A stretch of DNA of 24,801 nucleotides, taken from assembly GCA_037445915.1 (NCBI GenBank), contig JBBIJQ010000013.1, positions 18,062-42,862 on the forward strand, given 5' to 3'. This DNA comes from Planctomycetales bacterium (lineage in GTDB: Bacteria > 4484-113). The position numbers and the translations under genes were made by a program. A model generated the notes under the pieces. That model was not told where the DNA came from, made no database searches, and was given only the letters and a program-made list of their open reading frames with translations. The first letter of the stretch is position 1. Each line of letters starts with the position of its first letter. Positions 1,925-18,710 of this stretch are shown here, one piece after another.

Positions 1925-3988
1925 ATGTCCAACAAACACACAACCTATCCCCGCCCATTCCCAGCGCTGTCCACGTTTCCAATTTACCTAAGGGCATTTT
2001 GGGGATTGGCCATTTACGTTGGGATGATAGCGCTGCTTTTCGCGCATATCGCAGTCTGGCCGGTTCGCCTGAGCGTCGGGCAGGTGGTTCCATTTGACAT
2101 CATCTCGCCGATGGACGCCAGCTACATTGACAGTGCGGAACTGGCGAAGCTCAAGGCGAGCGGCAAGGCCAGTATCATTGACACTCGGATCGCAGACCAG
2201 GCACAGATCAAGCTTGCCTCTTTCTTTTTAGACGCGCGAAAGGCAAGGCTTGAGGAAGGCGACCCGACGCAGCAAGTGGAGAAACTTGCAGCCAATTACC
2301 CCCTGCCTAGCAGCCTTATCGCGCTGCTGCTAACCTTACCGGATGACGAGCTGAGCCAGACCGAGGACTATGCGCGGGAAACGCTTGCAGATTACATGAA
2401 GACCGCGCTTTCCACTTCGGAGATTGAACAGTTTCGGGAAGCAAGTTTAGACACACCGTCAATCACAACGCGCGACCGCGTGCCAGTCTATTTCCTGCAA
2501 AAGAACATTATTGAGGCTCCCGACGTGCCCGCGATGCAGGATTTCATCAACCGCCTGGTATCCCACCGCATAATTACCGGCGAAGTTATCCTCGGCGCAG
2601 GCGGGGTAGTTGAACAGGTAACGCTAGACAAACTGGCAGCGGTTGAGGACGGCATGGTTAAGCAGCGGCTCTACCGCTTCTACGGTATCGCCCTTCTCCT
2701 TGCTGTGCTTATGCTTGTTTGGTATGTCCACATCAAGCTTTACAAGAAGCGCTTCCTGAACAATCCTTCGCTATGGGCGCAGCTTGGGCTGATTTTCATG
2801 ATTTCTCTTACCCTGTCAATGCTAATCGGCCGGCTTCCCTTCCGCTACATCCACTACTGCGTCCCGCTTGGATTGGCGGTGGCAGTGATAATCATCGTTA
2901 CGATGTATGACGCAATTTTAGCCTCATACATAGGCCTGGGACTGGCAGTGGTTACAGCGCTCGCGCTGAATTACAACTCCAATTTGCTTATTTACATGCT
3001 GATATGCACGACCTACCCCGTCGTTTTCCTGAACAAGCGCTCTAGAGTGCGGGACTTGGCGTTGTTCGGCATCAATCTTGGCGCGCTAAACCTTTTGCTT
3101 GCGATGGCCGTCATACTTTTATCGGTTGAAACTTTCTCATGGTGGGTCGTCTTTTACTCGGTCATCACTGGCGTTATCGCTGCGGTCATCGCGCTTGGGG
3201 TCAGCCCGCTGCTGGAGATGCTTTCCACCCAGCTTACGCCCGGCAAACTTCAAGCGCTACTCAACCCTGAGCTGCCCTTACTCAAGAGGATGTTTGAGGA
3301 AGCCCCAGGGACTTACTTCCATTCAATGATGATGTCGTCAATGGCCGAGGAAGCTTGCAGCGAAATCGGCGCGGACGGGCTGCTAGCCAAAGTCGGGTGT
3401 ATGTACCACGACATAGGCAAGCTAAAGCGCCCGGGATTCTACACTGAAAATATCAGCAACCCCGCGAAAAACCCTCACCGCCACCTTCCACCGGAAAGCA
3501 GCTTTAACATTGTAGTCCAGCATGTTCAGCACGGGGTTGAGATGGGGCGCAAAGCCGGTCTGCCTGCGGAAGTGCTTGCGTTCATCTCCGAGCACCACGG
3601 GACGACGACGACTAAATACTTTCTTGAAGAAGCGCGCAAGCGCTCTTTGCTTGACGGTAACCAAGTTGACATTAACCACTTCAGATATGCCGGCCCTGAC
3701 CCGCGAAGCAAGGAAACGGGCGTGGCAATGCTTGCCGACACTTGCGAAGCCAAGATAAGGGCTACCAACGGCTTTACCGAAGAGGATGTGAGCAACATAG
3801 TCAACGCGGTTGTCCAAGAGAAGATGAACCTGGGCCACCTGGACAATTCAGGGTTGACAGTAGGAGACTTGCGCCGGGTGAGATTAGCTTTCACGCGGGT
3901 TTTAGTCAACCTGCACCACTCGCGCTTGAAATACCCGGAACAGACCGAAGGGGAAGAAGCCCGACAAACCCCTTTGAATCCCACATAG
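1925..3988 (+). CDS. pgpH: 7TM-HD (HDIG) membrane phosphohydrolase, PgpH-like cyclic-di-AMP phosphodiesterase
   Basis: N-terminal TM helix, extracytoplasmic region, multi-TM block, then EAPGTYFHS, YHDIGKLKRPGFYTEN, EHHGT, FRYAGPDPRSKE, MLADTCEA and RLKYP. Its position directly after phoH matches Firmicutes phoH-pgpH clusters. Confidence 0.85.
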   Translation: MSNKHTTYPRPFPALSTFPIYLRAFWGLAIYVGMIALLFAHIAVWPVRLSVGQVVPFDIISPMDASYIDSAELAKLKASGKASIIDTRIADQAQIKLASFFLDARKARLEEGDPTQQVEKLAANYPLPSSLIALLLTLPDDELSQTEDYARETLADYMKTALSTSEIEQFREASLDTPSITTRDRVPVYFLQKNIIEAPDVPAMQDFINRLVSHRIITGEVILGAGGVVEQVTLDKLAAVEDGMVKQRLYRFYGIALLLAVLMLVWYVHIKLYKKRFLNNPSLWAQLGLIFMISLTLSMLIGRLPFRYIHYCVPLGLAVAVIIIVTMYDAILASYIGLGLAVVTALALNYNSNLLIYMLICTTYPVVFLNKRSRVRDLALFGINLGALNLLLAMAVILLSVETFSWWVVFYSVITGVIAAVIALGVSPLLEMLSTQLTPGKLQALLNPELPLLKRMFEEAPGTYFHSMMMSSMAEEACSEIGADGLLAKVGCMYHDIGKLKRPGFYTENISNPAKNPHRHLPPESSFNIVVQHVQHGVEMGRKAGLPAEVLAFISEHHGTTTTKYFLEEARKRSLLDGNQVDINHFRYAGPDPRSKETGVAMLADTCEAKIRATNGFTEEDVSNIVNAVVQEKMNLGHLDNSGLTVGDLRRVRLAFTRVLVNLHHSRLKYPEQTEGEEARQTPLNPT

Positions 3989-4005
3989 CCACTGCCCTAC
4001 ACGCT

Positions 4006-5064
4006 ATGCAAAGGACAACAGAAAGCCGGAACTACCAGCAAGGCGGCAGGCCACCGCTGCTGTCACCGTTCAATGTTCTGATTATGGCCATCTTGCTGCT
4101 GCTACTGGGTTACGCCCTTTTTTGGATGTCGCGCGGCGACCCGCATGCGGCTAGGGAAGACAACCCGGTTGCAGTTCCTATAAAGCCGACACCATCGCTG
4201 GACGAATGGTCAGCCAAATCAGTGCGCGCCATCGGGCTGGCGCATGTTGGGGCTGCGCTTGCCAAAGTTTCGTTGCCTGCCGAGCGCCTTGCTGAGTACC
4301 ATACTCTTGACGAAGTCTTCGGGCGCACGCCGAACCCTGTCGTGCCTATAGCGCGGCGCCTTGAAACGTTCCAGCGCGGAACATATCCAGGGCTGTCTTC
4401 CAAGCTAGAAAACGTCATGGGCGAGCCCCTTAACAGCCCCCTGCGGGCATACGCGGAGATGACTAGCGCAGAGAAACTTCTGTTCTACTCCGACTGGGCA
4501 GGAACGCCGACGAGGGATTTGCCGGTGTACTACGAGATGATTAACCGCATGAACTCCGCGGACCTGCCTGAGATTTCCGGATACGGGATGCTAGACGCAG
4601 TTTGGAATGAGAGCGATGTCGTGGCGCTCGCGGCCATTTACAGGCGAACCGGCAGGGAAAAGGCCAAGCTGATAGACGCATTGTCGGAGGAGTGGCTTCC
4701 AATGTTTCTAAACCCGATTTCGCTGCGCCTATTTGAGCCCTGGCACAAGGAATGGGCTGCGGGACAGGGCTACATCTTTGAAATCACGGAACCGAAGGAA
4801 AGAATAAAGCTCGTGGACGCAGTGATAGAAATACAGATTGGGCAAGGCACGCCCCATCTGCAGCCGCGCTCAAATGAAATGCCGTGGAGCAGGCCCGCGC
4901 CCCAGCCTGCGGAAATCGCCGATACGATGGACTATTACAAGTTCTTTTACTACCGCGTTTACGGTGAGAATCCCGGCACTGTGCTTGCCGAAGGGGTTTT
5001 ACAGGTTGAGAGCTACCAGGCTAAGCTGGGCAGGTGGGAATCCAAAGCTGTCAAGCAGGAATAA
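4006..5064 (+). CDS. Hypothetical membrane-anchored protein (about 352 aa)
   Basis: Long ORF filling the gap after pgpH. I chose ATG 4006 to avoid overlapping pgpH (start uncertain). It has a single hydrophobic segment, VLIMAILLLLLGYALFWM. Confidence 0.65.
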   Translation: MQRTTESRNYQQGGRPPLLSPFNVLIMAILLLLLGYALFWMSRGDPHAAREDNPVAVPIKPTPSLDEWSAKSVRAIGLAHVGAALAKVSLPAERLAEYHTLDEVFGRTPNPVVPIARRLETFQRGTYPGLSSKLENVMGEPLNSPLRAYAEMTSAEKLLFYSDWAGTPTRDLPVYYEMINRMNSADLPEISGYGMLDAVWNESDVVALAAIYRRTGREKAKLIDALSEEWLPMFLNPISLRLFEPWHKEWAAGQGYIFEITEPKERIKLVDAVIEIQIGQGTPHLQPRSNEMPWSRPAPQPAEIADTMDYYKFFYYRVYGENPGTVLAEGVLQVESYQAKLGRWESKAVKQE

Positions 5065-5070
5065 CGGCGG

Positions 5071-6711
5071 TCAGAGTGGAATAACTATATGCCCCGGCGG
5101 CGGAAACTCGCAAGCCTGCCTTACTTCATTGATGAGGGGCTGTCCAAACAACGCCAGCGCTGCCAGCGAGCATATGCTGCGTTCTTGCGGCACACCGCCG
5201 GGAGACAGTGAGGCATAAAGCTCCGAAACTTGCAGGTCAAGCTGTTCATCCCGTCGCTTAACGCTCTGTTCAACTTTCTTTCTTACAGTAGCGAGGTGTT
5301 TGCGAAAGTTAGCTTCAAGTGTCTCCAGCACTCCCACAATTCCGGGGTCCAGCTTCGCCGATTCCTCGGAAAGCAACTGCGCCTGCCTAGAAAAGTCGGC
5401 TTCCATTTCATCCAAGCGCGATGTTATGCCCTGTGGCACCGCCTGCTTCGCCAGCCTGCGCAGAAGCTCGTTCTTCGGCTGCAAAAAAAAGGCGGGCAAC
5501 TCTAGCCCATAACGCTCCATCAGCCTGCGCTGCCGGCTATTGGTTATCGTAAATGTTGGGCGAGGCACAAGCAATGGCTCAGGCAGGCCGTACATCGCAA
5601 AGAGCGGATATAGCTGCGCCCAGTAGGCAACTTCGCCCGCGCCGCCGAGAAATGCCACAGTGGGGAACAGCGCTTGTTGATACAGCGGCCTTGTCAGCGC
5701 GCCAAACGAAATGCGCCACGGCTCGCGCTCAACCAGCGATGAAAGCTCTTCAATCCGCCATTCCCGGCTGCTGCCCTTAGTGGTGAAGCCTGCACCCGCG
5801 CACACGAGCTTCTCCCGCACACCTTCTTCGCTCAGCAGGAACAGGTTCGTGTCTTCGGGCTGTGCTGAGACCTGGAGTGTGCCGCCTGCTTTCTGTATCG
5901 CTGCATTGCGGGCATTAATTTCGCGCCATTCTTCTCCCTGGCGCTTTAGCGATTCAGTGAAAAGCGGTAGCGCAATCTCTTTCGCTTCTTCATCTTCCGA
6001 GTCAAACACGAGCAGGCCTTCACTGGCAAGGAAGAATGACATCAGCCTACAGAAAGCCTCAGTGAGGGTTGCGCCCACAACATATGACGCGCTGAACGCT
6101 GCGCGCGCTTCATCCGCGTAAGGGCTGGGCGGCAAGTGTTCAAAAAACGCGCCCGAGCTTGACACGGCGCTTGCGTCCAGCTTGATTCTGTTTACAGGCT
6201 TCCCTTCCGTTCCGGCAGGCTGCTCAATGGAAACTCTCTCAAACGCGCCACGCCGGTTAGTGAAGCCCACATGCCTGATTTCCTCAAAGTCGTGGTCCAT
6301 TCCGCTTGCCCAGAACAGCGGGACAAAGCGGTATCCAGGCAGCGCGGCTTCAAGCCTATCGCGCAGGGCAAGCAGCGCAACCGCCTTTATCAGTGTGTAA
6401 GTGGGGCCCAGGCAGACGCCGACTTGCTGTCCCGCGACAAGGAAGTAGCCATCGGTTGCAGCCGCGTCTAGCGATTTTTCCACCGCAGGCTCGGCAGGGC
6501 GAGGTTGCTGGCGGCGCAGCATTTCAGCTATTCGCTTGCGTTGGCCCCGCGAGCACCCTGCGCTTATCGCAATGCTCGCAGCCTTGTGCTTTACGCATTC
6601 GGCAATCGGGCGGATTGGCGGGTAGAAAAGGTCGGCAGATTTTTCGCCAAGGTAATGCGAAAGCGCCACTGGCTTAACGCCAAATTCGCTGAAACTATAA
6701 ACCGTTCTCAT
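5071..6711 (-). CDS. bshC: Bacillithiol biosynthesis cysteine-adding enzyme BshC
   Basis: GQQVGVCLGPTYTLIKA, VPLFWASGMDHDFEEI, RPLYQQALFPTVAFLGGAGEVAYWAQL, a C-terminal coiled coil and PGGVPQER. ATG 6711 follows GGAAAGGGA and gives 546 aa. Confidence 0.9.
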   Translation of the reverse strand: MRTVYSFSEFGVKPVALSHYLGEKSADLFYPPIRPIAECVKHKAASIAISAGCSRGQRKRIAEMLRRQQPRPAEPAVEKSLDAAATDGYFLVAGQQVGVCLGPTYTLIKAVALLALRDRLEAALPGYRFVPLFWASGMDHDFEEIRHVGFTNRRGAFERVSIEQPAGTEGKPVNRIKLDASAVSSSGAFFEHLPPSPYADEARAAFSASYVVGATLTEAFCRLMSFFLASEGLLVFDSEDEEAKEIALPLFTESLKRQGEEWREINARNAAIQKAGGTLQVSAQPEDTNLFLLSEEGVREKLVCAGAGFTTKGSSREWRIEELSSLVEREPWRISFGALTRPLYQQALFPTVAFLGGAGEVAYWAQLYPLFAMYGLPEPLLVPRPTFTITNSRQRRLMERYGLELPAFFLQPKNELLRRLAKQAVPQGITSRLDEMEADFSRQAQLLSEESAKLDPGIVGVLETLEANFRKHLATVRKKVEQSVKRRDEQLDLQVSELYASLSPGGVPQERSICSLAALALFGQPLINEVRQACEFPPPGHIVIPL

Positions 6712-7303
6712 TCCCTTTCCAAGGCTGCACAAGGCTGGTCTTATACCCTAGCGCATCTAGTATGCGCCCTACAATGAGACCTATATGCCCTTCCACCCCT
6801 TCCGGTTTGCTGTAAAAAGTCAACACCGGCGGAATTATGGCCGCCCCGTAACCGGCGAGCTTCGCCAAGTTGTCCAAGTGAAGCTGCGACATCGGCATTT
6901 CGCGGGGCACGAGCACTAACTTGCGGCACTCTTTCAGCGCAACATCAGCGGCGCGGGTGATGAGAGTGTCGCTGATGCCAGCCGCTATGCGGCCAGCCGT
7001 GCCCATTGAACAAGGGCATATCACCATAGACTTCCAGGGGTTGCTGCCAGAAGCGAGCGGGGAAAACATGTCTTGGGCGCTATGCACCGTCAGAGCTGGG
7101 CTAATAACGCCAAGCGCGCTTGCGACAGCATCAGCCTGCGGGAGAATGCCAGTCTCAAACGCGAAAACGCGCGCGCCGGTTACGGAGAATATTAGGTGGC
7201 ACTGCGCGCCAAGGCGAAGCAGCTCCTGGAGCAGGCGGACAGCGACAGGCGCGCCGCTGGCGCCTGTTACGGCGCATACGACGGCAGTTTCAAAATTGGG
7301 CAT
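6695..7303 (-). CDS. ubiX: UbiX-family flavin prenyltransferase
   Basis: AVTGASGA, SPLASGS, CPCSMGT, RAADVALKECRKLVLVPREMP, IIPPVLTFY. Confidence 0.93.
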   Translation of the reverse strand: MPNFETAVVCAVTGASGAPVAVRLLQELLRLGAQCHLIFSVTGARVFAFETGILPQADAVASALGVISPALTVHSAQDMFSPLASGSNPWKSMVICPCSMGTAGRIAAGISDTLITRAADVALKECRKLVLVPREMPMSQLHLDNLAKLAGYGAAIIPPVLTFYSKPEGVEGHIGLIVGRILDALGYKTSLVQPWKGNENGL

Positions 7304-7306
7304 TCG

Positions 7307-10183
7307 CTATGACTTTCCGACCAGGGTGCGGAAGTCGGGGTCGTTGTGCAGCCGTTCAAACTCAGGCGCGTTTGCGATTAGCTGCACGATCTCAGGGTCA
7401 ATGGACACAGTCTTCTTCAGGATGTTAATCGCTTCCTGGTTCTCGCGCAGCAACACATGCAGGTGCGCGTAGCCCATGAGGAGGTGCGTTGCCTGCGGGA
7501 AGCGGGCCAGGCCTTCGCCGTAAGCCTTACGGGCGCGGTCGTATTCCTTTAGCTGCACCAGGGAAAAAGCCTTGTTCTCATACGCCGGCAAGTAGTCTTT
7601 GTCCAGTGCGATTGCCAAGTCAAAGTGCTCCACCGCTTTTGCGAATTGCTCAAGCTGGGCTAGAATGACGCCCTTGTTCAGGAACGCCTTCTTGTGTGAC
7701 GGGTCTTGTTTGATGCACTGGTCAAACGAGTTTATCGCCTTTAGTTGCTCGCCGAGATCAACCTCCGCCAGCGCCTTTTGATACCAAACCTCTGGCATCT
7801 GCGAGGTAAGCCTGAGGATGCGCTCGGTGGTGTCAGACGCACCCTGCGCATCGCCGCAGAGGTTTTGCGCGGTGGCTTTGTGGAGAAGGTAGTCGGTGTT
7901 CGTCGGGTCAACCTTCAGAGCGTGGTCGTAGGCTTTGACCGCGTCCTTCCAGTTCTGGAGTTCGTCTTCAGCCAGGCCAAGCTGGTACCATGCTTTGGCG
8001 TCTTCTGGGTTTTCAGAAAGGTACTTAGTAAGCCACTCCGCCTTGCCCTCGTTGTCGTTGACTTCGCCCAGAAGAAGCGCCTTGCGGTACCAGACCAGGT
8101 CAAAGTTCGGGTTAATGGAGATGCTCTTGTCAAAGCAGCTAAGGGCTTCGGGGCGCATATGCTTCGCCCAGAGCACCAAGCCCTTGTTGTACCAAACGCG
8201 CGGGTCATCCGGCACGCGCTCAAGATACTTGTTTATGTAAACCAGCGCATCGTCATAGCGCTTGAGGCCATACAGCGTAAGCGCGTAGTTTGACCACGAC
8301 TCTATGTCGTCCGGGGCAACCTCAAGGAAATACTCGTAGGTTTCGCGGGCGCGATCATAGCTGCGGGTCATAACCTCAGCGATACCACGGTTCTTAAACG
8401 CGTAGTCGTCCTCTTCGTTTAGCTCAATCGCCTTATCAAAGTACGCCATCGCGCGGTAGTCCTGTCCGATCTTGCCGAGGAGGATGCCGTTGTTATACCA
8501 GGCCTTAAACAGCCTGGGGTTGGATTCGCGAGAGTTGATGAAGCAGCGGTGCGCTTGGAGCTTGCGCCCTTCTTCGTAAAGCACCATACCCAGGTTATAC
8601 CAGGCGCTGGAGTTGCCGGCGGCGAGTTCAAGACACTTCTCGTACGCCTCGCGCTCTTTTACGATATCGCCTAGCTTGTTGTAGGCGATGCCTATGTTGT
8701 ACCAAAGGGCTTCCTGATCGGACTTAATCGTCAGCGCCTTCTCGTAGGAAGCGGCTTCTTCAGCCCAATTCTCGGCTTCGCGGTATATCAGCCCCTTAAG
8801 CACGTAGTAACCGTAGTCCTTGTCATTGAGGGAAACCGCTTTGTCCACCGAACGGAGCGCCAAGCCGGTCTGGCCTGTCTTGTAGTAGCCCCAAGCCATA
8901 CCGAAATGCGCAATCGGGTTGTCGGGGAACAGCTCAACGATTTTCTTGAACTTAGTGTCAGCGTCTTCAAAGCTGCCCTTCTTCAGGTCGTTGTAAGTAT
9001 GGTTGACGAGCTTGCGCTCGGCTTCCTTCGCCGCACGCTCCTTTTCCTCTTTCTTCTTGAACAGGCCCTTAGTATCCTTTTGCCACTGCTCCATGATGAC
9101 TTCGTAGTTGGCAACCAGGAAGCCTTCATCAAGTATGTCGCGGTGAACCAGGTCCTTGAGTTCAGGAGTCGTCGGGCCCTCGCGCCTCCGGATATCGCCG
9201 TAAGGCAGCACGTTGAAGCGCTGGAAGGAGAACGCCAGTTCCTCCTCCATAGTAGGGAGCTTGAGGTCGGTGGCTATCTGCTCAAACAGGTAATCGCTCT
9301 CGTCAATCTCAAAGAGCTTGAAGTCCTTGCCCTTATCCATGCCGACTGCGAGCAGGTCGGTGATGGCCTCGGGAACCTGCTTGATGTTCCCCTTATAAGC
9401 CCAGAGGAGCCCGCCGCTCAAGAAATCAGGGTAGTCGTGGGCAAGCTCCATCAGCGTGTTCATCACGGAATACTCAGTTCCTGAGTAGCCGACGACGAAC
9501 AGACGCGAGTTGGCAAGCGAGTTGCGCATAAACGCCTTGAAGTCGTCATGGTGCTTTGCCATTCCCTCGCGGATGTAGCGCACGTCATACTTGTCATAGT
9601 CGCCGTGAACCTTAACGATATAACGCCCCTCATCCAGGCTGACGAGCTTCAACTCCTCAATAGAACGGACGGTGATACAGCTCGTGCCGCGCAGGATGTA
9701 GTAGGCATCCTCCGCCAGCGTGTCCCAGTTGGTTGTGTAGAGAATGGGGTGCAGCTTGCCGGCCTTCACGCCGATGACATAAAGCAAGTGAGTCGGCGAA
9801 GGCTGCTTGCCCTTCAACATGTCTTTGAAGAGCTGAGTGCGCAGGTACACACTCGGATACTCTTTTTCCAGAACGCTGATGTACTTATAGTTGGGGTTGA
9901 ACCACTTTTGGCGGATAACCCATTCGCGAAGCTCGTCGGCGGAAACCTGCCCGCGCTTGGCTGGGTTGGCCTTTTCAAACACCCGCACAGTGATGCTGTC
10001 CACTATGTCAAGAGCCTGTGGAACGCCAGCGGACACCGATACGCCTGCGCCGAAAAACATCTGGTAATCCCGGATGTTCGCCATCAGCTTGGCGTATGCG
10101 TCCTCAAACGGGATGATACATTCTGCCAGGACCTCCTTACGGTCCCGTTGGTCCACAGTCTTGATGCGTCTTCTGATAGACAT
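7307..10183 (-). CDS. SIR2-like (SIR2_2, Zn-less sirtuin) domain fused to a long TPR array (about 958 aa)
   Basis: FFGAGVSVSAGVP, LYTTNWDTLAEDA, IVKVHGD and LFVVGYSG are followed by a charged helical linker and about 16 34-aa TPRs (e.g. AWYNLGMVL...A...P), ending in APEFERLHNDPDFRTLV. ATG 10183 is preceded by GGAGGT. Confidence 0.88.
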   Translation of the reverse strand: MSIRRRIKTVDQRDRKEVLAECIIPFEDAYAKLMANIRDYQMFFGAGVSVSAGVPQALDIVDSITVRVFEKANPAKRGQVSADELREWVIRQKWFNPNYKYISVLEKEYPSVYLRTQLFKDMLKGKQPSPTHLLYVIGVKAGKLHPILYTTNWDTLAEDAYYILRGTSCITVRSIEELKLVSLDEGRYIVKVHGDYDKYDVRYIREGMAKHHDDFKAFMRNSLANSRLFVVGYSGTEYSVMNTLMELAHDYPDFLSGGLLWAYKGNIKQVPEAITDLLAVGMDKGKDFKLFEIDESDYLFEQIATDLKLPTMEEELAFSFQRFNVLPYGDIRRREGPTTPELKDLVHRDILDEGFLVANYEVIMEQWQKDTKGLFKKKEEKERAAKEAERKLVNHTYNDLKKGSFEDADTKFKKIVELFPDNPIAHFGMAWGYYKTGQTGLALRSVDKAVSLNDKDYGYYVLKGLIYREAENWAEEAASYEKALTIKSDQEALWYNIGIAYNKLGDIVKEREAYEKCLELAAGNSSAWYNLGMVLYEEGRKLQAHRCFINSRESNPRLFKAWYNNGILLGKIGQDYRAMAYFDKAIELNEEDDYAFKNRGIAEVMTRSYDRARETYEYFLEVAPDDIESWSNYALTLYGLKRYDDALVYINKYLERVPDDPRVWYNKGLVLWAKHMRPEALSCFDKSISINPNFDLVWYRKALLLGEVNDNEGKAEWLTKYLSENPEDAKAWYQLGLAEDELQNWKDAVKAYDHALKVDPTNTDYLLHKATAQNLCGDAQGASDTTERILRLTSQMPEVWYQKALAEVDLGEQLKAINSFDQCIKQDPSHKKAFLNKGVILAQLEQFAKAVEHFDLAIALDKDYLPAYENKAFSLVQLKEYDRARKAYGEGLARFPQATHLLMGYAHLHVLLRENQEAINILKKTVSIDPEIVQLIANAPEFERLHNDPDFRTLVGKS

Positions 10184-10229
10184 TTGCGGATGAAACCTCC
10201 ACCCGTATATTGCCGGAGAGTGAAGTGAG

Positions 10230-10258
10230 ATTATACACTCCCCCTTCATATGCGGCAA
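10230..10258 (-). promoter_or_regulatory. Sigma70-type promoter for the SIR2-TPR-ubiX-bshC operon
   Basis: On the minus strand: TTGCCG (10258-10253), 17-nt spacer, TATAAT (10235-10230). Confidence 0.65.
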
Positions 10259-10314
10259 TACTACTTACAGGAAGAACTCAAAAGCGCCTTGGGAGGCTTG
10301 TTAGGGCAGCCTTC

Positions 10315-10323
10315 TGGTAGAAT
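10315..10323 (+). promoter_or_regulatory. Extended -10 element, probable leaderless start of the phnD-like gene
   Basis: TGGTAGAAT, then 7 nt, then in-frame GTG 10331. Confidence 0.55.
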
Positions 10324-10330
10324 CTGTCCT

Positions 10331-11253
10331 GTGAGACTCCTGATAACAGCCGCTTTGCTAGTGACATTTTCGCTCTTCGCATCCTGTAACCAGCCAGCGC
10401 AGGAGGAAGCCGGCAAGCCCCAGCGCTTCTTGGCCAGCAGCAGAAAACAAGCTGAGCCCGGCAGCGCGAAAAAACCTATCGTCGTGGCTTTTGTGCCTTC
10501 CACCGAAGCCGAGAAGATAGTGGAAGGCGCTCTGCCGCTGATGAAGCTCCTGGAGGATAAGACCGGGCTGAGGTTCAAGGATTACATCGCCACCATGGGC
10601 ATGTGGATGTAGCCTGGCTGCCTACCCTAGCCTATGTCCTCGCACATGAACGCAACGGCGCCCTTGTGACTCTCAAGGCGGTGCGCAGAGGGTCTGACAG
10701 CTATTACGGCATCATCATCACGCGCAACGACTCAGGGGTAAGCGAGCTGGCTGACCTAAAGGGAAAGACATTCGCTTTTGTTGACGCAGCCAGCGCATCC
10801 GGCCACCTCTACCCGCGCGCGCTGCTATTGAAAAATGGCGTTGACCCCGATAAGGACTTGGATCGTTACTTGTTCGTAGGCGGGCATGACAGCGTCGTGA
10901 TGGCGGTATTCAAAGGCAATGTTGAGGCTGGGGCCATTTACGAGGACGCGCGCGACAAGTTCAAGGACACAATGCCTAAAATCCTCAGCGAAACCAAAAT
11001 TATCGCCAAGACTGACCCCATCCCCAGCGACACAGTAAGCTTTTCGTCCAAGCTCCCGCCGGAGCTAGTTGAGAAGATAACGCAAGCGCTGATTGACTTG
11101 ATGAACACGCCGGAAGGGAAAAAGGCCGTCTATGACATCTACCAGGTTGAAGGGCTTGTTGAAGCCAAAGACGAGGACTACAACACCGTGCGGGAGATGG
11201 CAAAGCTGCTCGGCCTTGACTTGGAAAAGTCTGTCCGCGAAGACGCAGGATAG
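10331..11253 (+). pseudogene. phnD: Phosphate/phosphite/phosphonate ABC substrate-binding lipoprotein (PhnD family), split across two frames near 10595
   Basis: First frame: signal peptide with lipobox LFASC, then IVVAFVPS...LEDKTGLRFKDYIAT, stop at 10610-10612. Second (-1) frame: HVDVAWLPTLAYV, DLKGKTFAFVDAASASGHLYP, GGHDSVVMAV, TDPIPSD. This could also be an assembly error. Confidence 0.75.
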
Positions 11254-12905: not shown

Positions 12906-13466
12906 TTAGCGGCTGAGCTTGCCGGGGATCTCCAGCGTCTCGTCCAGCTTCCAGTCGCAGATGCCGTCGTAGCTTGCGCTAACGAGCTTGCTGAAGAACT
13001 GGGTGTAAAGATGCTCCTTCTTCTCCTCATCGCCGTAGCAGGCAACAATCTCGCCGAGGAAGAATGTATGGTCGCCAGCAGGAAATTGCGAGTGAAGCTT
13101 GCACTCAAAGGCGGCTGCGCAATCGGCGAGCAGCGGAGCTTTCACTACTTTGGACGGCTGCGTTTTCAAGTTGTATTTCTCCACCTTGCTCACGTCTCGC
13201 CCGCTTATCTTTCCGCACTGCCACGCCTCCAGCGCGATTGACTTGTGTGGGAAGCAGAGCGTGAATTCCTTGCTCTGCTCAATGCACGTATGCGTGTAGC
13301 GCTCAGGGGCAATGGCAATGCCGAGAAGCTTAGGCTTTGCCGAAAGGTAGCACCACCAGCCAACTCCCATTACGTTGGGCACGCCTTTTGCATCCAGCGC
13401 AACCGCCAGCACGTATGAATACGGCGATCCCAGCAAGACCCCTTTAGTCCACTCAACTTCTTTCAT
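12906..13466 (-). CDS. Flavin reductase family FMN-binding protein (flavoredoxin-like)
   Basis: PNVMGVGW, RYTHTCIEQSKEFTL, CGKISGRDVSK, VKAPLLADCAAAFEC, GDHTFFLGEI. ATG 13466 lies 6 nt after GGAGG. Confidence 0.88.
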   Translation of the reverse strand: MKEVEWTKGVLLGSPYSYVLAVALDAKGVPNVMGVGWWCYLSAKPKLLGIAIAPERYTHTCIEQSKEFTLCFPHKSIALEAWQCGKISGRDVSKVEKYNLKTQPSKVVKAPLLADCAAAFECKLHSQFPAGDHTFFLGEIVACYGDEEKKEHLYTQFFSKLVSASYDGICDWKLDETLEIPGKLSR

Positions 13467-13511
13467 GATGCGCCTCCGGCCAATTTGCATGTTGAACACA
13501 TGTTACGGATA

Positions 13512-13586
13512 TCGGGGAGGGGAGATTTGAACTCCCGACCTCTTGGTCCCAAACCAAGCGCGCTAACCGGGCTGCGCCACTCCCCG
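13512..13586 (-). tRNA. tRNA-Pro (anticodon TGG), CCA not encoded
   Basis: Minus strand reads CGGGGAGTGGCGCAGCCCGGTTAGCGCGCTTGGTTTGGGACCAAGAGGTCGGGAGTTCAAATCTCCCCTCCCCGA. Acceptor stem CGGGGAG/CTCCCCG, anticodon arm CTTGG-TTTGGGA-CCAAG, T-loop TTCAAAT. It is followed by TAT. Confidence 0.96.
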
Positions 13587-13596
13587 ATGCGGAGGG

Positions 13597-13605
13597 ATTC
13601 TAGCA
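13597..13605 (-). promoter_or_regulatory. Extended -10 promoter of tRNA-Pro
   Basis: Minus-strand TGCTAGAAT lies 10 nt upstream of the tRNA 5' end. Confidence 0.55.
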
Positions 13606-13624
13606 CGGGGACGCAAAGACAAGC

Positions 13625-14695
13625 TTAGAGCTTGCCGCGCTGCGCGTATTTGATTGACACTTGCTGCGCCAGATTTTGCGCCACACGCGTGAACTCCTGA
13701 GCAACTTTGCCTTCCGGGTCGGATGCGACGACAGGCATTCCCGCGTCATCGGCAGCGCGCATCTTTGAATCAAGCGGTATTCCGCCAAGGAAGGCTATGC
13801 CCAGCCGCTTGCACATCTCTTCGCCGCCGCCCTTATCAAAGATGTGATGTTCCGTGCCGCAATTGTCGCAGATGAAATAGCTCATGTTCTCAACTACGCC
13901 AAGAACCTGTACGTCCATCTTGCGAAACAGCGAGACGACCTTGCCTGCGATGGAGCTTGCCATCGCCTGGGGCGTCGTGACTACCAAAGCGCCAGCAAGC
14001 GGGATGCTCTGCGTCAGCGAAAGCTGCGCATCGCCCGTGCCCGGCGGGAGGTCAACTATGAGGTAATCAAGCTCGCCCCACTGCACGTCTTGCATAAACT
14101 GCGTCAACAGCGAATGCACCATCGGCCCGCGCCATATCACGGCCTGGTCGGGGTCAACAAGAAATCCAAGCGACATCAGCTTAACGCCGAAGCGCTCAAT
14201 GGGGATGAGCTTCTTGTCATCGTTTAGCTCGGGAACTTCGTGGACTCCCAGGAGAATGGGCAAGCTCGGGCCGTAAACGTCAGCGTCAAGCAGCCCTACC
14301 CTCGCGCCTTCTTTCCCAAGCGCGATAGCCACGTTGGCGGCTATAGTGCTTTTGCCCACTCCGCCCTTGCCGCTTGCCACGGCTATCACGTTCTCCACGC
14401 CAGGTATTCGCTGCATGGGTGACGGGCCGCATACTTTGGATGATATTTCAACCTGCACCGATTTAACCCACGGCAGCTTCTTCACTGCCTCCTCCGCATC
14501 GTTCTTGAACATCGCCTTCAACGGGCAGGCGGGGGTCGTCAGCTCAATCGTAAAGCTCACTTCGCCGCCGTTGACAACGAGGTTCTTCACAAACCCCAGC
14601 GTAACGATGTCGGCGTTAAGGTCGGGGTCAATGATTTTGCTCAGCGCGCTGAGCACTTCTTGTGTTCTTGCGTCATCAGTCAATGAGTTCTCCAT
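13625..14695 (-). CDS. mrp: Mrp/ApbC/NBP35 Fe-S cluster carrier ATPase with N-terminal DUF59 domain
   Basis: IIDPDLNADIVTLG and LTTPACP (DUF59), ASGKGGVGKST, LDADVYGPS, WRGPM, DLPPGTGDAQL, VENMSYFICDNC. Confidence 0.95.
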   Translation of the reverse strand: MENSLTDDARTQEVLSALSKIIDPDLNADIVTLGFVKNLVVNGGEVSFTIELTTPACPLKAMFKNDAEEAVKKLPWVKSVQVEISSKVCGPSPMQRIPGVENVIAVASGKGGVGKSTIAANVAIALGKEGARVGLLDADVYGPSLPILLGVHEVPELNDDKKLIPIERFGVKLMSLGFLVDPDQAVIWRGPMVHSLLTQFMQDVQWGELDYLIVDLPPGTGDAQLSLTQSIPLAGALVVTTPQAMASSIAGKVVSLFRKMDVQVLGVVENMSYFICDNCGTEHHIFDKGGGEEMCKRLGIAFLGGIPLDSKMRAADDAGMPVVASDPEGKVAQEFTRVAQNLAQQVSIKYAQRGKL

Positions 14696-14742: not shown

Positions 14743-15765
14743 TTATTCTTTAGGCGGCTTCGCGGGCATTTCGCCGGCATGGCTAGCGACAAGCTTGTCG
14801 CGGCGCTGGATGGCTTTGGAACGCTCGCGGAATGTTCTTTCGTCAGTGAGCTCGTCCAGCGAACGCGCGCGGTTGGCTTCTAGGAAATAAAGCAAGGAAG
14901 CTTCAGTGAGCCACGGCGCGGTTGAAAGATCGCCGGGTGAATAATAGTTTGCGCGCATGAACGGGCGTTTCTTTATAGGATTAATGTACTGCAGGCCAAG
15001 CTTCGCCGCCATCTTCTCAAACTCCACGGGGATGCGCTTGTCCATCTCTGCGGGGGTGAGCCCCCGCTGGTCGGACATATACAGAAAGCGGCTATACATC
15101 GCCGGGAGCATAAGCTCCAGGTGCGTCGCACTCTCGGCGACGAGGAAGTCGGATTGCGGCCGCACCTTTTCAGTGACTTTCAAAGCAGATGCGCGGTAGT
15201 TGAACGGCGATGCAATCCAAAGCTCTGAGCACTGCCCATTCTCGTCAAAGATGAGCATTTGGAGGCTGTCGCCGTCCTGCCAGTAGATGAGGTCGCCGGG
15301 CGTGGCAAACTGGATGCGCGAAGGCTCAATCCGCCGCCCCTGCACCGAAGTCATGCCCATTCCCGGCGCGCCCCCGCTGCCTTGAATCGGCGGGGGGCCG
15401 GCGTTGCCATTCTGTTGCTGCTGGCCGGCATCCTCTTCCAACTGCGCAAACACCCCGCCATGCGGCAAGGCGTCACTCTTGGAGAAGTCCTGCTCGCGGG
15501 GAGTGAACGGGATTTGCTGGATTTGCAGCAAGGTATAGCTGTTGAAGACATCCACGACCCAAAACGGGCTGTTGCGCAGCTCCTGCAGATTCTTGGGGTA
15601 GCGCCCGATTTGCTTCAAATAAACGTGCGCCATGTAGTGGATGGTCTCAAGCTGCGCCTGGGATATCGCCCAAACGCCTGTCATAGCGGTCTGCGCCGGC
15701 GCGGGAATGCTCATCAGCGCAATCACTGCCGTTAGCACTGCTATCACTCTGATGTATGTGCTCAT
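14743..15765 (-). CDS. Secreted hypothetical protein (about 340 aa)
   Basis: Sec-type signal peptide MSTYIRVIAVLTAVIALMSIPAPA/Q and a Q/G/P-rich linker. ATG 15765 is preceded by TATAAT-CTACCT. Confidence 0.75.
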   Translation of the reverse strand: MSTYIRVIAVLTAVIALMSIPAPAQTAMTGVWAISQAQLETIHYMAHVYLKQIGRYPKNLQELRNSPFWVVDVFNSYTLLQIQQIPFTPREQDFSKSDALPHGGVFAQLEEDAGQQQQNGNAGPPPIQGSGGAPGMGMTSVQGRRIEPSRIQFATPGDLIYWQDGDSLQMLIFDENGQCSELWIASPFNYRASALKVTEKVRPQSDFLVAESATHLELMLPAMYSRFLYMSDQRGLTPAEMDKRIPVEFEKMAAKLGLQYINPIKKRPFMRANYYSPGDLSTAPWLTEASLLYFLEANRARSLDELTDERTFRERSKAIQRRDKLVASHAGEMPAKPPKE

Positions 15766-15771
15766 AGGTAG

Positions 15772-15777
15772 ATTATA
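15772..15777 (-). promoter_or_regulatory. -10 element, probable leaderless start
   Basis: Minus strand reads TATAAT-CTACCT-ATG(15765). Confidence 0.55.
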
Positions 15778-16003
15778 GCGCAAGGGGGAAAGGAGCGAGG
15801 GGTATCTAGCAGGTAGCATGGCAGCTTCCTGAGGAGTACGCTGGGCTGATAAGCGCGGCTAGAAACAGACAGGTAAGACGCCAGATATCATGCCCTCCGC
15901 TTCGCCCGTGCCAAACATTCGCGGTGGGTATGATGGGGGGAGGCGGCAGCGGTGCAAAGAGGGGGCAAGCTTACAGCATAGTCCAGAACCCGAGTGGGGC
16001 TGG

Positions 16004-17579: not shown

Positions 17580-18710
17580 CTAGAAGCCGGTCAAGTGATA
17601 GAAGGTTACCGGCTCGCGCCGCCCCCGCAGCTCAACCTGCTCCTGCTTGCTCACGTCCATATTCTTTATCTTGCGGTAGATTAGCTTGTAAGTAGACTCG
17701 GCTATCGCGATGTTGTTGTTCTTCTCGTGGCTGCAGATGCGGGCCGCGACGTTCACTACGTCGCCGATGGCGGTGTAGTTCATCATCATGTTCTCAACGC
17801 CGATGTTGCCGAAGACGACTTTGCCGGAGTTCAGCCCGATGCCAAGGTAAAACTCCTCCTGATGGTTGCGGTAACGGTTGATGTTGTAGGTGCGCAGGAA
17901 GCGCATAATCTCAACCGACGCTTGAAGCGCATTGCCCGCGTTCTTTGAGGGGGCCGTTTCGCTGGAGAACACAGCCATCAGGCCGTCGCCGATGAACTTG
18001 TCCACATTGCCGTCGTTTCGCGTTACGACGCGCGTGACTTCTGTGAATATGTCGTTGAGGGTTCCCAGCACGGCTTCCGGCACGTGGACCTCGGCAAAGA
18101 ATGTGTAATGGCGCAGGTCCAGGAACAAGACAGTCACATCGCGCACGATACCCTTTTGGATGTCCTCCATTTCCCCGCGCAAAGTGCGCGCGACAAGCTC
18201 GGCGGGAAGAAAGTACCAGATTTTTTGCACATCCAAGAACTTCTGGTAGTAGAAGTCCAGCTCGTCAATGAGGTGGCGGAGCTGAAGGATATTTGTTGAG
18301 GAAAGGCGCTCTGTCGCAGTCTTGAATATGCGGAAGAATACAGTCTTGTGGCGGCGGATGAAGTTCTGGAAGTTATCCTCGTCAATGCTCAAGATTGTCA
18401 CGTCTTCGCGCGCTCGCACGGTCGCCGTCGCAGGGCAGTTCAGGACGCTGCCAATTTCGCCAAAGTAATCGCCCGGCCCAAGCGTGTTGATGCGCACCAT
18501 GCGGTTGCCGATTTGCTTAAACACATCCACCAGCCCGCGCTCCAAAAAAAACACGCGGCGCATGAACTTGCCTTCGTGGATTACATAGTCGCCGACGGCC
18601 GGGGCTTCCTCATTGATGTGCTTAAGCAACCCTGCGATGTCTTCGTTTGACACGTCGTCAAACAGGTCAAACTGCCTGATGCGCTTAATGTCGTGAAGCC
18701 TTGGCGTCAT
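17580..18710 (-). CDS. Cyclic-nucleotide-binding domain fused to a class III adenylate cyclase
   Basis: N-terminus: GDYVIHEG, LERGLVDV, GDYFGEIG..PATATVRA. C-terminus: VTVLFLDLRHYT, VDKFIGDGLMAVF, GIGLNSG, GNIG, NYTAIGDVVNVAARI, LRGR. Confidence 0.9.
   Translation of the reverse strand: MTPRLHDIKRIRQFDLFDDVSNEDIAGLLKHINEEAPAVGDYVIHEGKFMRRVFFLERGLVDVFKQIGNRMVRINTLGPGDYFGEIGSVLNCPATATVRAREDVTILSIDEDNFQNFIRRHKTVFFRIFKTATERLSSTNILQLRHLIDELDFYYQKFLDVQKIWYFLPAELVARTLRGEMEDIQKGIVRDVTVLFLDLRHYTFFAEVHVPEAVLGTLNDIFTEVTRVVTRNDGNVDKFIGDGLMAVFSSETAPSKNAGNALQASVEIMRFLRTYNINRYRNHQEEFYLGIGLNSGKVVFGNIGVENMMMNYTAIGDVVNVAARICSHEKNNNIAIAESTYKLIYRKIKNMDVSKQEQVELRGRREPVTFYHLTGF

Follow-up and report, generated by a model that had tools for sequence, protein, structure and literature searches.

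Sirtuin-fold proteins that act on NAD+ have been described in several systems that bear on the gene studied here, a fusion of a SIR2 domain with tetratricopeptide repeats (SIR2-TPR) that lies in a 24,801-nucleotide (nt) stretch of DNA (hereafter the window) from a Planctomycetales bacterium (contig JBBIJQ010000013.1). In DSR2, a ligand captured by the solenoid makes the protein more rigid and enlarges the NAD pocket without touching it, according to the available text of PMC11850899. For the SPARSA system, for which the Protein Data Bank (PDB) entries 8IN8 and 8JKZ are listed in two structure papers (one of them PMC10474274), the accessible part of PMC10781750 states that the N142A and H186A mutants of GsSir2 lose NADase activity, and that H186 lies in the loop 186-HGD-188. 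In vertebrates, the FAM118A and FAM118B proteins are associated with tightly regulated NAD processing in the available portion of PMC12700824.

SIR2-TPR unites an immune-type enzyme head and a DSR2-like one-chain design, yet it has the distribution, descent, selection and genomic context of a core gene. Drawing on the observed architecture, motifs, fold class, distribution, vertical descent, purifying selection and context, we arrive at a reading that we consider evenly balanced between right and wrong, namely that SIR2-TPR is a domesticated NAD+-consuming switch of DSR2-like build that is gated through its TPRs by a ligand.

An immune-type SIR2 head

The SIR2-TPR coding sequence (7307..10183, reverse strand, as are all parts of the gene given below) is intact and runs from an ATG at 10183 through 958 amino acids (aa) to a TAG stop (7307-7309). 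Its SIR2_2 or immune-type sirtuin domain (residues 25-310, 9254..10111) was recognized by Pfam, PADLOC, a PDB profile search and fold matches. The Pfam family SIR2_2 (PF13289) matched residues 147-253 with 31.3 bits against a cut-off of 24.5, and the gene is the sole PF13289 match in the source genome. A first-pass annotation of the window, made from the letters alone, had listed a set of sirtuin motifs, all of which were found, the two given with coordinates exactly where it had placed them: the Rossmann NAD-binding motif GAGVS (residues 45-49, 10037..10051), TTNWD with the predicted catalytic Asn152 (residues 150-154, 9722..9736), KVHG with the predicted catalytic His193 (residues 191-194, 9602..9613) and GYSG (residues 232-235, 9479..9490). 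Across our family alignment of 40 sequences, G45, G47 and S49 of the first motif and T150, T151, N152 and D154 of the second are invariant (40/40), G232, Y233 and G235 of the last are also invariant, and His193 is present in 39 of 40, with Tyr in its place in the lineage that we label f4. Judged by sequence, the Asn152/His193 dyad and the NAD pocket are intact. Zn-finger CxxC pairs had been reported as missing, and indeed there is no CxxC anywhere in the 958-aa protein, which has seven Cys in all, two of them in the head (C22 and C169); the small domain of the head is all-helical in the model. A separate canonical sirtuin gene (PF02146) is located on another contig of the source genome. SIR2-TPR itself was ruled out as a canonical sirtuin deacylase (CobB type, PF02146), given that it has no CxxC and that PF02146 is not among the best 25 of the 30 Pfam families matching it at E ≤0.01.

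Models from 12 PADLOC families matched the protein. The best match was to the SIR2 part of short-pAgo partner models (E 1.5e-30, residues 39-310 in Aga_SIR2, profile positions 7-286 of 558), and as for the other immune systems that had been named for comparison, ThsA matched weakly (E 9.2e-5, residues 148-236) and no DSR1, DSR2 or SIR2-HerA model matched at E ≤0.01; the match to the SPARSA-type models covers the SIR2 part only. A sequence-profile search of the PDB placed the SPARSA Sir2 chains 8jkz, 8jl0 and 8in8 first (E 1.9e-19, residues 23-307), followed by KomC (5.6e-7) and ThsA (1.3e-3), with no DSR2 chain at E ≤0.1. At the level of single residues, N152 and H193 pair with N142 and H186 of GsSir2, and the TTN and HGD motifs coincide.

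Because a Foldseek search with the whole AlphaFold2 model returned TPR proteins only among its best 50 matches, we folded and searched the head separately (pLDDT 74, pTM 0.70). The best Foldseek match was the SPARSA chain 8y80_E (E 7.2e-12, TMq 0.62, rmsd 3.9 over 305 columns), followed by KomC, DSR2 (E 5e-7 to 1e-5), ThsA and Avs5. VIA-align, which is independent of Foldseek, ranked ThsA (Z 18.9), KomC (17.8), Avs5 (15.5-15.6), PsSIR2 (15.4) and FAM118B (13.8) above canonical sirtuin deacylases (Z ≤12.7), HerA-Sir2 (12.1) and SirTM (10.4). These fold matches span residues 18-314. All lines of evidence, from sequence and from models, agree in classing the head as an immune-type, Zn-less sirtuin (SIR2_2 or 'SIRim').

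Distribution, vertical descent and selection

Our phylum sample comprised 24 genomes from one class, four families (f1-f4) and 13 genera, with completeness between 62 and 96%, alongside 17 outgroup genomes. A search with the SIR2 part recovered one full-length-type copy of SIR2-TPR per genome in all 24 and none in the 17 outgroup genomes, while Cas1, used as a control, was found in 7 of the 24 and varied within genera. Two genomes of one genus carry an extra SIR2_2 gene that is only distantly related (32% identity), which shows that ordinary accessory sirtuins occur in the phylum as well. When one genome per species was scanned with a sequence pattern across 185,579 species, 21 full-length loci were found, all in metagenome-assembled genomes (MAGs) of the same lineage, together with six Dehalococcoidia loci that match residues 148-242 only, at 27-29%. 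A search of 1.84 billion representative proteins with the head gave 1,179 relatives at E ≤1e-3; the four clusters at E ≤1e-30 are all SIR2-TPR proteins of 957-1016 aa, and the next match has an E value of 1.1e-26.

The family forms a single clade (support 100) in a phylogeny built from 166 SIR2 domains, and the stem of this clade measures 0.76 changes per site. The sister group (support 99) consists of 33 proteins, mostly of 560-600 aa; in these relatives only the SIR2 part of the pAgo-partner models is matched, and the C-terminal parts are of other kinds, for example Macro. Fusions of SIR2_2 with TPRs are common among the distant relatives, with or without HEAT repeats, and are not new as such. 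We then reconstructed a maximum likelihood tree of the 21 full-length members, in which every taxonomic family and every genus forms one clade and the f1 and f2 families, which belong to the same order, are sisters; label changes on this tree are the minimum possible (3 for families and 11 for genera), an exact match to taxonomy. Identity of the head decreases with taxonomic distance, from 95% in the same genus to 73-83% in the same family, 59-61% in the same order and 43-47% in the same class. SIR2-TPR is a vertically inherited single-copy core gene of an uncultured candidate phylum, and what is new is this evolutionary status, that of an immune-type sirtuin which has become fixed, in single copy, throughout a phylum.

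The ratio of nonsynonymous to synonymous substitution rates (dN/dS) was estimated with a same-genus genome as the reference, a single pair with a dS of 0.89. It was 0.046 for the whole of SIR2-TPR, 0.022 for the SIR2 head, 0.048 for the connector that follows it and 0.059 for the TPR arm; neighbouring genes in the same pair gave 0.056 (amidohydrolase), 0.061 (PhoH), 0.093 (Mrp), 0.123 (UbiX) and 0.14 (BshC). Purifying selection on SIR2-TPR is as strong as on its housekeeping neighbours.

Genomic context and the antiphage alternative

SIR2-TPR is flanked in the window by housekeeping genes, which include phoH, a 7TM-HD gene, bshC, ubiX, a phnD-type binding protein gene, an amidohydrolase, a flavin reductase and mrp. 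Only 3 nt, without any terminator-like site, separate the TAG of SIR2-TPR from the ATG of ubiX (flavin prenyltransferase; 6695..7303, reverse strand; TIGR00421, 178.5 bits vs 108.9), and the next gene after ubiX is bshC (bacillithiol synthesis; 5071..6732, reverse strand; TIGR03998, 341 bits vs 265.8, and Pfam). A survey of homologue neighbourhoods, which the first-pass annotation had put forward, covered 21 loci in public genomes and showed a context that holds within a family and changes from one family to another; the neighbours are housekeeping genes in all four families. In the nine f1 and f4 loci (8 f1, 1 f4), ubiX lies 7-54 nt downstream on the same strand, often then followed by bshC. 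The f2 loci have a divergent rsmD 35-144 nt upstream of SIR2-TPR (10 of 10) and a cinA-N-like gene downstream (9 of 9 with sequence), and both f3 loci have degT upstream and a convergent queD downstream.

Across the phylum genomes, ubiX exceeded its cut-off in 10 of 24 (f1 and f4), each time directly after SIR2-TPR at a distance of 3-54 nt, and had no match over cut-off in the 14 f2 and f3 genomes, all of which keep SIR2-TPR. Thus ubiX depends on its position next to SIR2-TPR, whereas SIR2-TPR does not need ubiX, and a functional link across the 3-nt junction was ruled out as a requirement. The cinA-N-like gene of f2 contains MoCF_biosynth and FLAD1_M domains and scores 107 against an NCBIfam cut-off of 293. 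At one locus (L013, 12502-14130, forward strand) the CinA-N-type domain is in one frame with some 280-300 upstream residues, a stretch without any match in Pfam, and the next gene, on the opposite strand, is RecX-like. This neighbour gives a bare hint of a link to NAD/ADP-ribose metabolism, its arrangement being confined to f2 and its score below cut-off.

No family member was found in IMG/VR viral contigs, PLSDB plasmids or GenBank phages. What these collections do hold are remote matches: 2 loci in IMG/VR at 27-30%, 13 PLSDB records, 8 of which were listed at 23.7-26.4% identity, and 4 GenBank phage records at 23-26% identity. In the haloarchaeal virus MW344766, a gene annotated as 'tetratricopeptide repeat protein' (13356-14141, reverse strand) has a matched part that is 23% identical to the SIR2 head, and distant cousins of SIR2-TPR therefore do travel on viruses. 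Among the 19 other open reading frames (ORFs) of the window, 17 had no PADLOC match, including those that flank SIR2-TPR; the exceptions were a PycC-like cyclase 7 kb away (E 4e-25, the sole clear match) and, weakly, mrp (E 4.2e-6). The cyclase gene (17580-18710, reverse strand) is a fusion of cNMP-binding and class III nucleotide cyclase domains that matches the Pycsar cyclase model PDLC00734 over nearly its full length, and it may be an ordinary regulatory cyclase.

One explanation for an immune-type head in this setting is that SIR2-TPR is a fixed, DSR2-like antiphage abortive-infection sensor, universal and chromosomal in the phylum, in which the TPR arm would capture a conserved phage protein and the head would deplete NAD+. 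The class of the head, by both sequence and fold, is in keeping with such a role, as is the joining of a SIR2 head and a solenoid in one chain, which is the design of DSR2 in the available text of PMC11850899; distant SIR2_2+TPR cousins occur in many lineages and on the haloarchaeal virus, and the accessible part of one study (10.1101/2024.09.18.613514) reports that neighbourhoods of the wider clade are 12-fold enriched in defence genes. The distribution of SIR2-TPR speaks against it, however, with presence in 24 of 24 genomes and exact congruence of tree and taxonomy as compared with 7 of 24 for Cas1, and so do the low dN/dS and fixed repeat number of the TPR arm, a housekeeping context that is stable in each family with the distant cyclase as the sole clear PADLOC match in the window, the failure to find a family member on the mobile elements searched, and the lack of a match to DSR1 or DSR2 models. 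We therefore regard an antiphage sensor as unlikely. The first-pass annotation had led with an undescribed abortive-infection factor, which is not supported as the leading account of a single-copy, vertically inherited gene with these properties; the option that it named second, a sirtuin domesticated for cellular signalling, fits the distribution, descent, selection and context better.

The connector and the TPR arm

Between head and arm lies a connector with a charged helix (residues 311-388, 9020..9253) that has nine invariant residues (E315, F320, F323, N324, Y328, D352, G354, F355 and I363). It had been described as a charged linker, and while its position was correct, it is not a loose linker: the region is a conserved connector, and the charged run KKKEEKERAAKEAERK (residues 376-391, window 9011-9058) is modelled by AlphaFold2 as a long helix (378-401) that leads into TPR1. 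The full-length AlphaFold2 model, built from the 40-sequence alignment (pLDDT 89.6, pTM 0.79), consists of a Rossmann-type head, the connector and 32 paired helices. Block means of pLDDT in the connector are 66-93 in the full-length model vs 39-69 in the head-only model, a comparison that is not clean given that the alignment depths differ (40 vs 15 sequences). As the connector is modelled with confidence only when the arm is present, the models suggest that it packs on the TPR arm.

The arm consists of exactly 16 TPRs (residues 389-932, 7388..9019) in an unbroken 34-residue register, where about 16 had been estimated, and is closed by C-terminal cap helices (residues 933-958, 7310..7387; helices 930-955 in the model) that overlap a match to NCBIfam NF047558 TPR_END_plus (residues 905-955, 87.8 bits vs a cut-off of 32). 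The profile searches bear out both halves of the proposed SIR2_2/TPR assignment: in addition to PF13289, which is over its cut-off, a long list of Pfam TPR families matches from about residue 390 to the C-terminus. They likewise support the description of a stand-alone fusion of SIR2 and TPRs without a P-loop, as the protein lacks a Walker A motif and matches no NTPase family in Pfam or NCBIfam.

All family members have the same number of repeats, and the sole insertions are of 11 residues (f2 and f3) and 44 residues (one f4 sequence). Repeats within the protein have a mean identity of 18%, and orthologous repeats compared across families reach up to 50-59%. The most conserved repeats are TPR10, 1, 14, 11, 7 and 6; invariant patches lie off the canonical structural positions, one example being that in TPR14 (L841, A842, L844, E845, Q846, A848, K849 and A850). 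Repeat-specific conservation together with a constant repeat count therefore points to a fixed partner or a fixed intramolecular contact and not to a fast-changing target, and by its sequence the arm looks like a fixed-partner binder.

The nearest folds to the arm are the TPR superhelices of Ctr9, OGT, SPINDLY (SPY) and Ski3, and this resemblance bears on a second alternative, in which SIR2-TPR would be a protein-modifying enzyme whose TPR superhelix recruits a substrate polypeptide, as in OGT, and whose head ADP-ribosylates or deacylates that substrate. By fold, the superhelices of OGT and SPINDLY resemble the arm most closely (1w3b_A, TMt 0.69; 6eou, 0.75; 8dtf), and Asn occupies repeat position 6 in 9 of the 16 repeats, without a break from TPR4 to TPR9. 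The TPRs of OGT have an asparagine ladder. Protein ADP-ribosylation by a sirtuin fold also has a precedent in SirTM, according to the available portion of PMC12700824, and SirTM matches the head at Z 10.4. The head nonetheless resembles NAD+ hydrolases (Z 13.8-18.9) more than deacylases and SirTM (Z 10.4-12.7), it has no Zn module, a canonical sirtuin is already encoded in the genome, and the domain order is the reverse of that in OGT; we consider a protein modifier decidedly unlikely.

Proposed mechanism and points against it

Returning to the domesticated switch, we propose that SIR2-TPR would act as a cytoplasmic one-chain enzyme, with the SIR2_2 head held by the conserved connector on the 16-TPR superhelix. 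The TPR groove would bind an endogenous partner that is conserved and most probably a protein or peptide, and groove occupancy would be relayed through the connector to the head and its active site. Once activated, the head would cleave NAD+, and a lower NAD+ pool or slower growth would follow under some internal state. Gating of this kind would mirror DSR2, in which ligand in the solenoid opens the NAD pocket. In its fuller form, the proposal is that a SIRim sirtuin was permanently domesticated and fixed at the root of the phylum, and that its TPR arm reads an endogenous protein or peptide and gates NAD+ consumption, so that the protein would serve as a metabolic or dormancy switch and not as a virus sensor; we hold this tentatively, at slightly under even chances.

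This interpretation must be made cautiously, as several points weigh against it. To our knowledge, every bacterial SIR2_2 enzyme with a tested role is an antiphage NADase. The available text of 10.1101/2024.09.18.613514 argues that the whole SIRim clade is immune. Conservation as such is also compatible with a sensor whose phage target is itself conserved. The 24 genomes, all MAGs, are related to one another and represent 13 genera of a single small phylum; their count takes in two copies that are presumed intact, one with a frame of only 647 aa around the SIR2 part (G012) and one at which the contig ends (G016). The dN/dS values come mainly from one pair, the dS of which (0.89) is near saturation; the next, more distant genome gives a TPR dN/dS of 0.22, but at a dS >1. 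It also counts that NADase activity, gating by the TPRs and an endogenous ligand are predicted from sequence and by analogy.

The f4 lineage (G020, P0040) provides a further point. In it His193 is replaced by Tyr and the branch is very long, at 1.37 changes per site, yet a full-length gene is kept. The f4 orthologue (L018 in G020, 6726-9776, reverse strand) reads IVHLYGFF where others have I/V-K-x-HGD and carries the 44-residue insertion in its TPR region; His is kept in P0050, the sister cluster representative. That f4 keeps the full-length gene with this substitution implies that something besides catalysis is retained, at least there. The same lineage would suit a third alternative, a non-catalytic scaffold or NAD+ sensor in which the head merely binds NAD+ or ADP-ribose and TPR-mediated assembly does the work, and the accessible text of PMC12700824 reports that human FAM118B and FAM118A are each very weakly active alone. 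Conservation of the dyad across the family alignment (Asn in 40/40, His in 39/40) and a dN/dS in the SIR2 part that is the lowest of the protein (0.022) both run counter to a scaffold, which we judge very improbable.

Start site, N-terminal tail and other features of the window

SIR2-TPR lies within one open frame (7307..10258, reverse strand) that amounts to 983 aa when counted from a TTG in the ORF scan. We prefer the ATG at 10183 as the start for three reasons: full-length homologues (n = 39, 916-1016 aa, from a search of 5.8 billion proteins) align from residue 1; a promoter-like site upstream of the gene (TTGCCG-17-TATAAT, 10230..10258, reverse strand; 10/12 matches in a consensus scan, a consensus match alone) falls within the longer TTG frame; and a GGAGG is placed 12 nt ahead of the ATG. 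The TTG at 10258 was ruled out as a start on the same grounds. One open frame of 2.9 kb to which 39 homologues are collinear is far beyond chance, and the interval originally annotated, 7307-10183, corresponds to one intact 958-aa gene for which the ATG is the better choice of start.

The N-terminal tail (residues 1-24, 10112..10183) is basic and conserved (MSIRRRIK...), with I3, R4 and R5 at least 90% conserved in the family alignment. Residues 1-9 have a pLDDT <50 in the full-length model, and the tail is predicted to be disordered. It could act as a putative peptide that docks in the TPR groove, in cis or in trans, or as a degron.

Elsewhere in the window, two ORFs (10250-10612 and 10603-11253, both on the forward strand) encode the N- and C-terminal parts of a PhnD-type phosphonate-binding protein in different frames (offset 353 nt, remainder 2). 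The two halves share one frame in the same-genus genome, which indicates that the window has either a frameshift or an assembly error here. The conserved ORFs at 3742-5064 (forward strand, 440 aa) and 14743-15819 (reverse strand, 358 aa) are 62% and 78% identical, respectively, in the same-genus genome, and neither has a Pfam or NCBIfam match even at E ≤1.

Comparison with known systems

The first-pass annotation had called the architecture distinct from those of described systems. This is true of sequence and domain families; it does not extend to the design, since a SIR2 head joined to an alpha-solenoid arm is the plan of DSR2. DSR2 of Bacillus subtilis (for example PDB 8wyb, 8yg1 and 8zc9) is, like SIR2-TPR, one chain of ~1,000 aa with an N-terminal SIR2 head of the NADase type, a connector and a long alpha-solenoid arm, without an NTPase. 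DSR2 assembles as a tetramer via SIR2:SIR2 contacts, and its trigger is a phage tail tube protein. The AlphaFold monomer comparison with DSR2 that had been suggested for this locus yielded a confident model, and the two heads share a fold at the Foldseek E values given above. Protein binding by the solenoid arm is a feature of DSR2 in the available text of PMC11850899, and by analogy DSR2 would be the best model for how SIR2-TPR works. The two differ in that there is no sequence match (PADLOC at E ≤0.01, PDB profile at E ≤0.1) and the heads match in fold only; in that the arm of SIR2-TPR is built of 16 canonical TPRs whereas that of DSR2, as far as its accessible description goes, has HEAT-like repeats and a helical-bundle middle domain; and in that DSR2 is an accessory defence gene whereas SIR2-TPR was inherited vertically and belongs to the core gene set, with a copy in each of the 24 genomes. 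Membership in DSR2 was ruled out by sequence, and the distribution is also not patchy.

The Sir2-APAZ protein of SPARSA (GsSir2; 8in8, 8jkz, 8jl0 and 8y80) provides the closest solved SIR2 domain, both by sequence and by Foldseek, and its catalytic N142/H186 dyad and HGD loop are conserved in SIR2-TPR. Unlike SPARSA, SIR2-TPR has no APAZ; the match to the PADLOC model Aga_SIR2-PNTD1-PNTD2 ends at profile position 286 of 558, and the C-terminal part is made of TPRs. A Piwi/Argonaute gene (PF02171) was not found in the 90%-complete source genome, and the neighbours of SIR2-TPR are ubiX and the phnD-type gene; membership in SPARSA was ruled out by the lack of APAZ and of a Piwi gene. Avs5 and other SIR2-STAND proteins likewise combine a SIR2 effector head and C-terminal repeats in one protein, and in Avs5, as in other STAND-TPR sensors, the C-terminal repeats serve as the sensor. 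Membership in Avs or STAND was ruled out by the absence of a Walker A motif and of an NTPase match, and without a STAND NTPase the switch of SIR2-TPR cannot be NTP-driven oligomerization. Thoeris ThsA was also ruled out, as its PADLOC match is weak (E 9.2e-5) and Pfam finds no SLOG or Macro domain. OGT and SPINDLY share with SIR2-TPR a long, regular TPR superhelix joined to a catalytic domain, but the likeness is an analogy only, as the catalytic domains are not related and come in reverse order with respect to the TPRs.

In a literature search limited mainly to open papers, we found no paper that deals with this family, with any bacterial SIR2-TPR of core-gene status or with the lineage's biology. 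The gene is a clean signature gene of a little-known uncultured phylum, and it offers a tractable test system, being a single chain that is predicted to be soluble, with catalytic residues known from sequence comparison and conserved TPR patches from which a search for the ligand could start. Were the domesticated switch confirmed, SIR2-TPR would become the first housekeeping enzyme among the bacterial SIR2_2 proteins and a counter-example to a purely immune bacterial SIRim clade; if the head is active, the family would be an example of a suicide enzyme that was tamed to serve the cell under regulation.

The vertebrate FAM118A and FAM118B proteins offer a parallel to this evolutionary status, since they too are SIR2_2 proteins fixed as conserved genes across a large clade, and by analogy they would be a precedent for an immune-type sirtuin kept lineage-wide. 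They differ in being eukaryotic, in having no TPR arm, in forming filaments and in being linked to immunity-type signalling, and we saw no indication of a direct link by descent between FAM118 and SIR2-TPR. If the proposed reading is correct, SIR2-TPR would be a bacterial counterpart of these lineage-wide vertebrate sirtuins.

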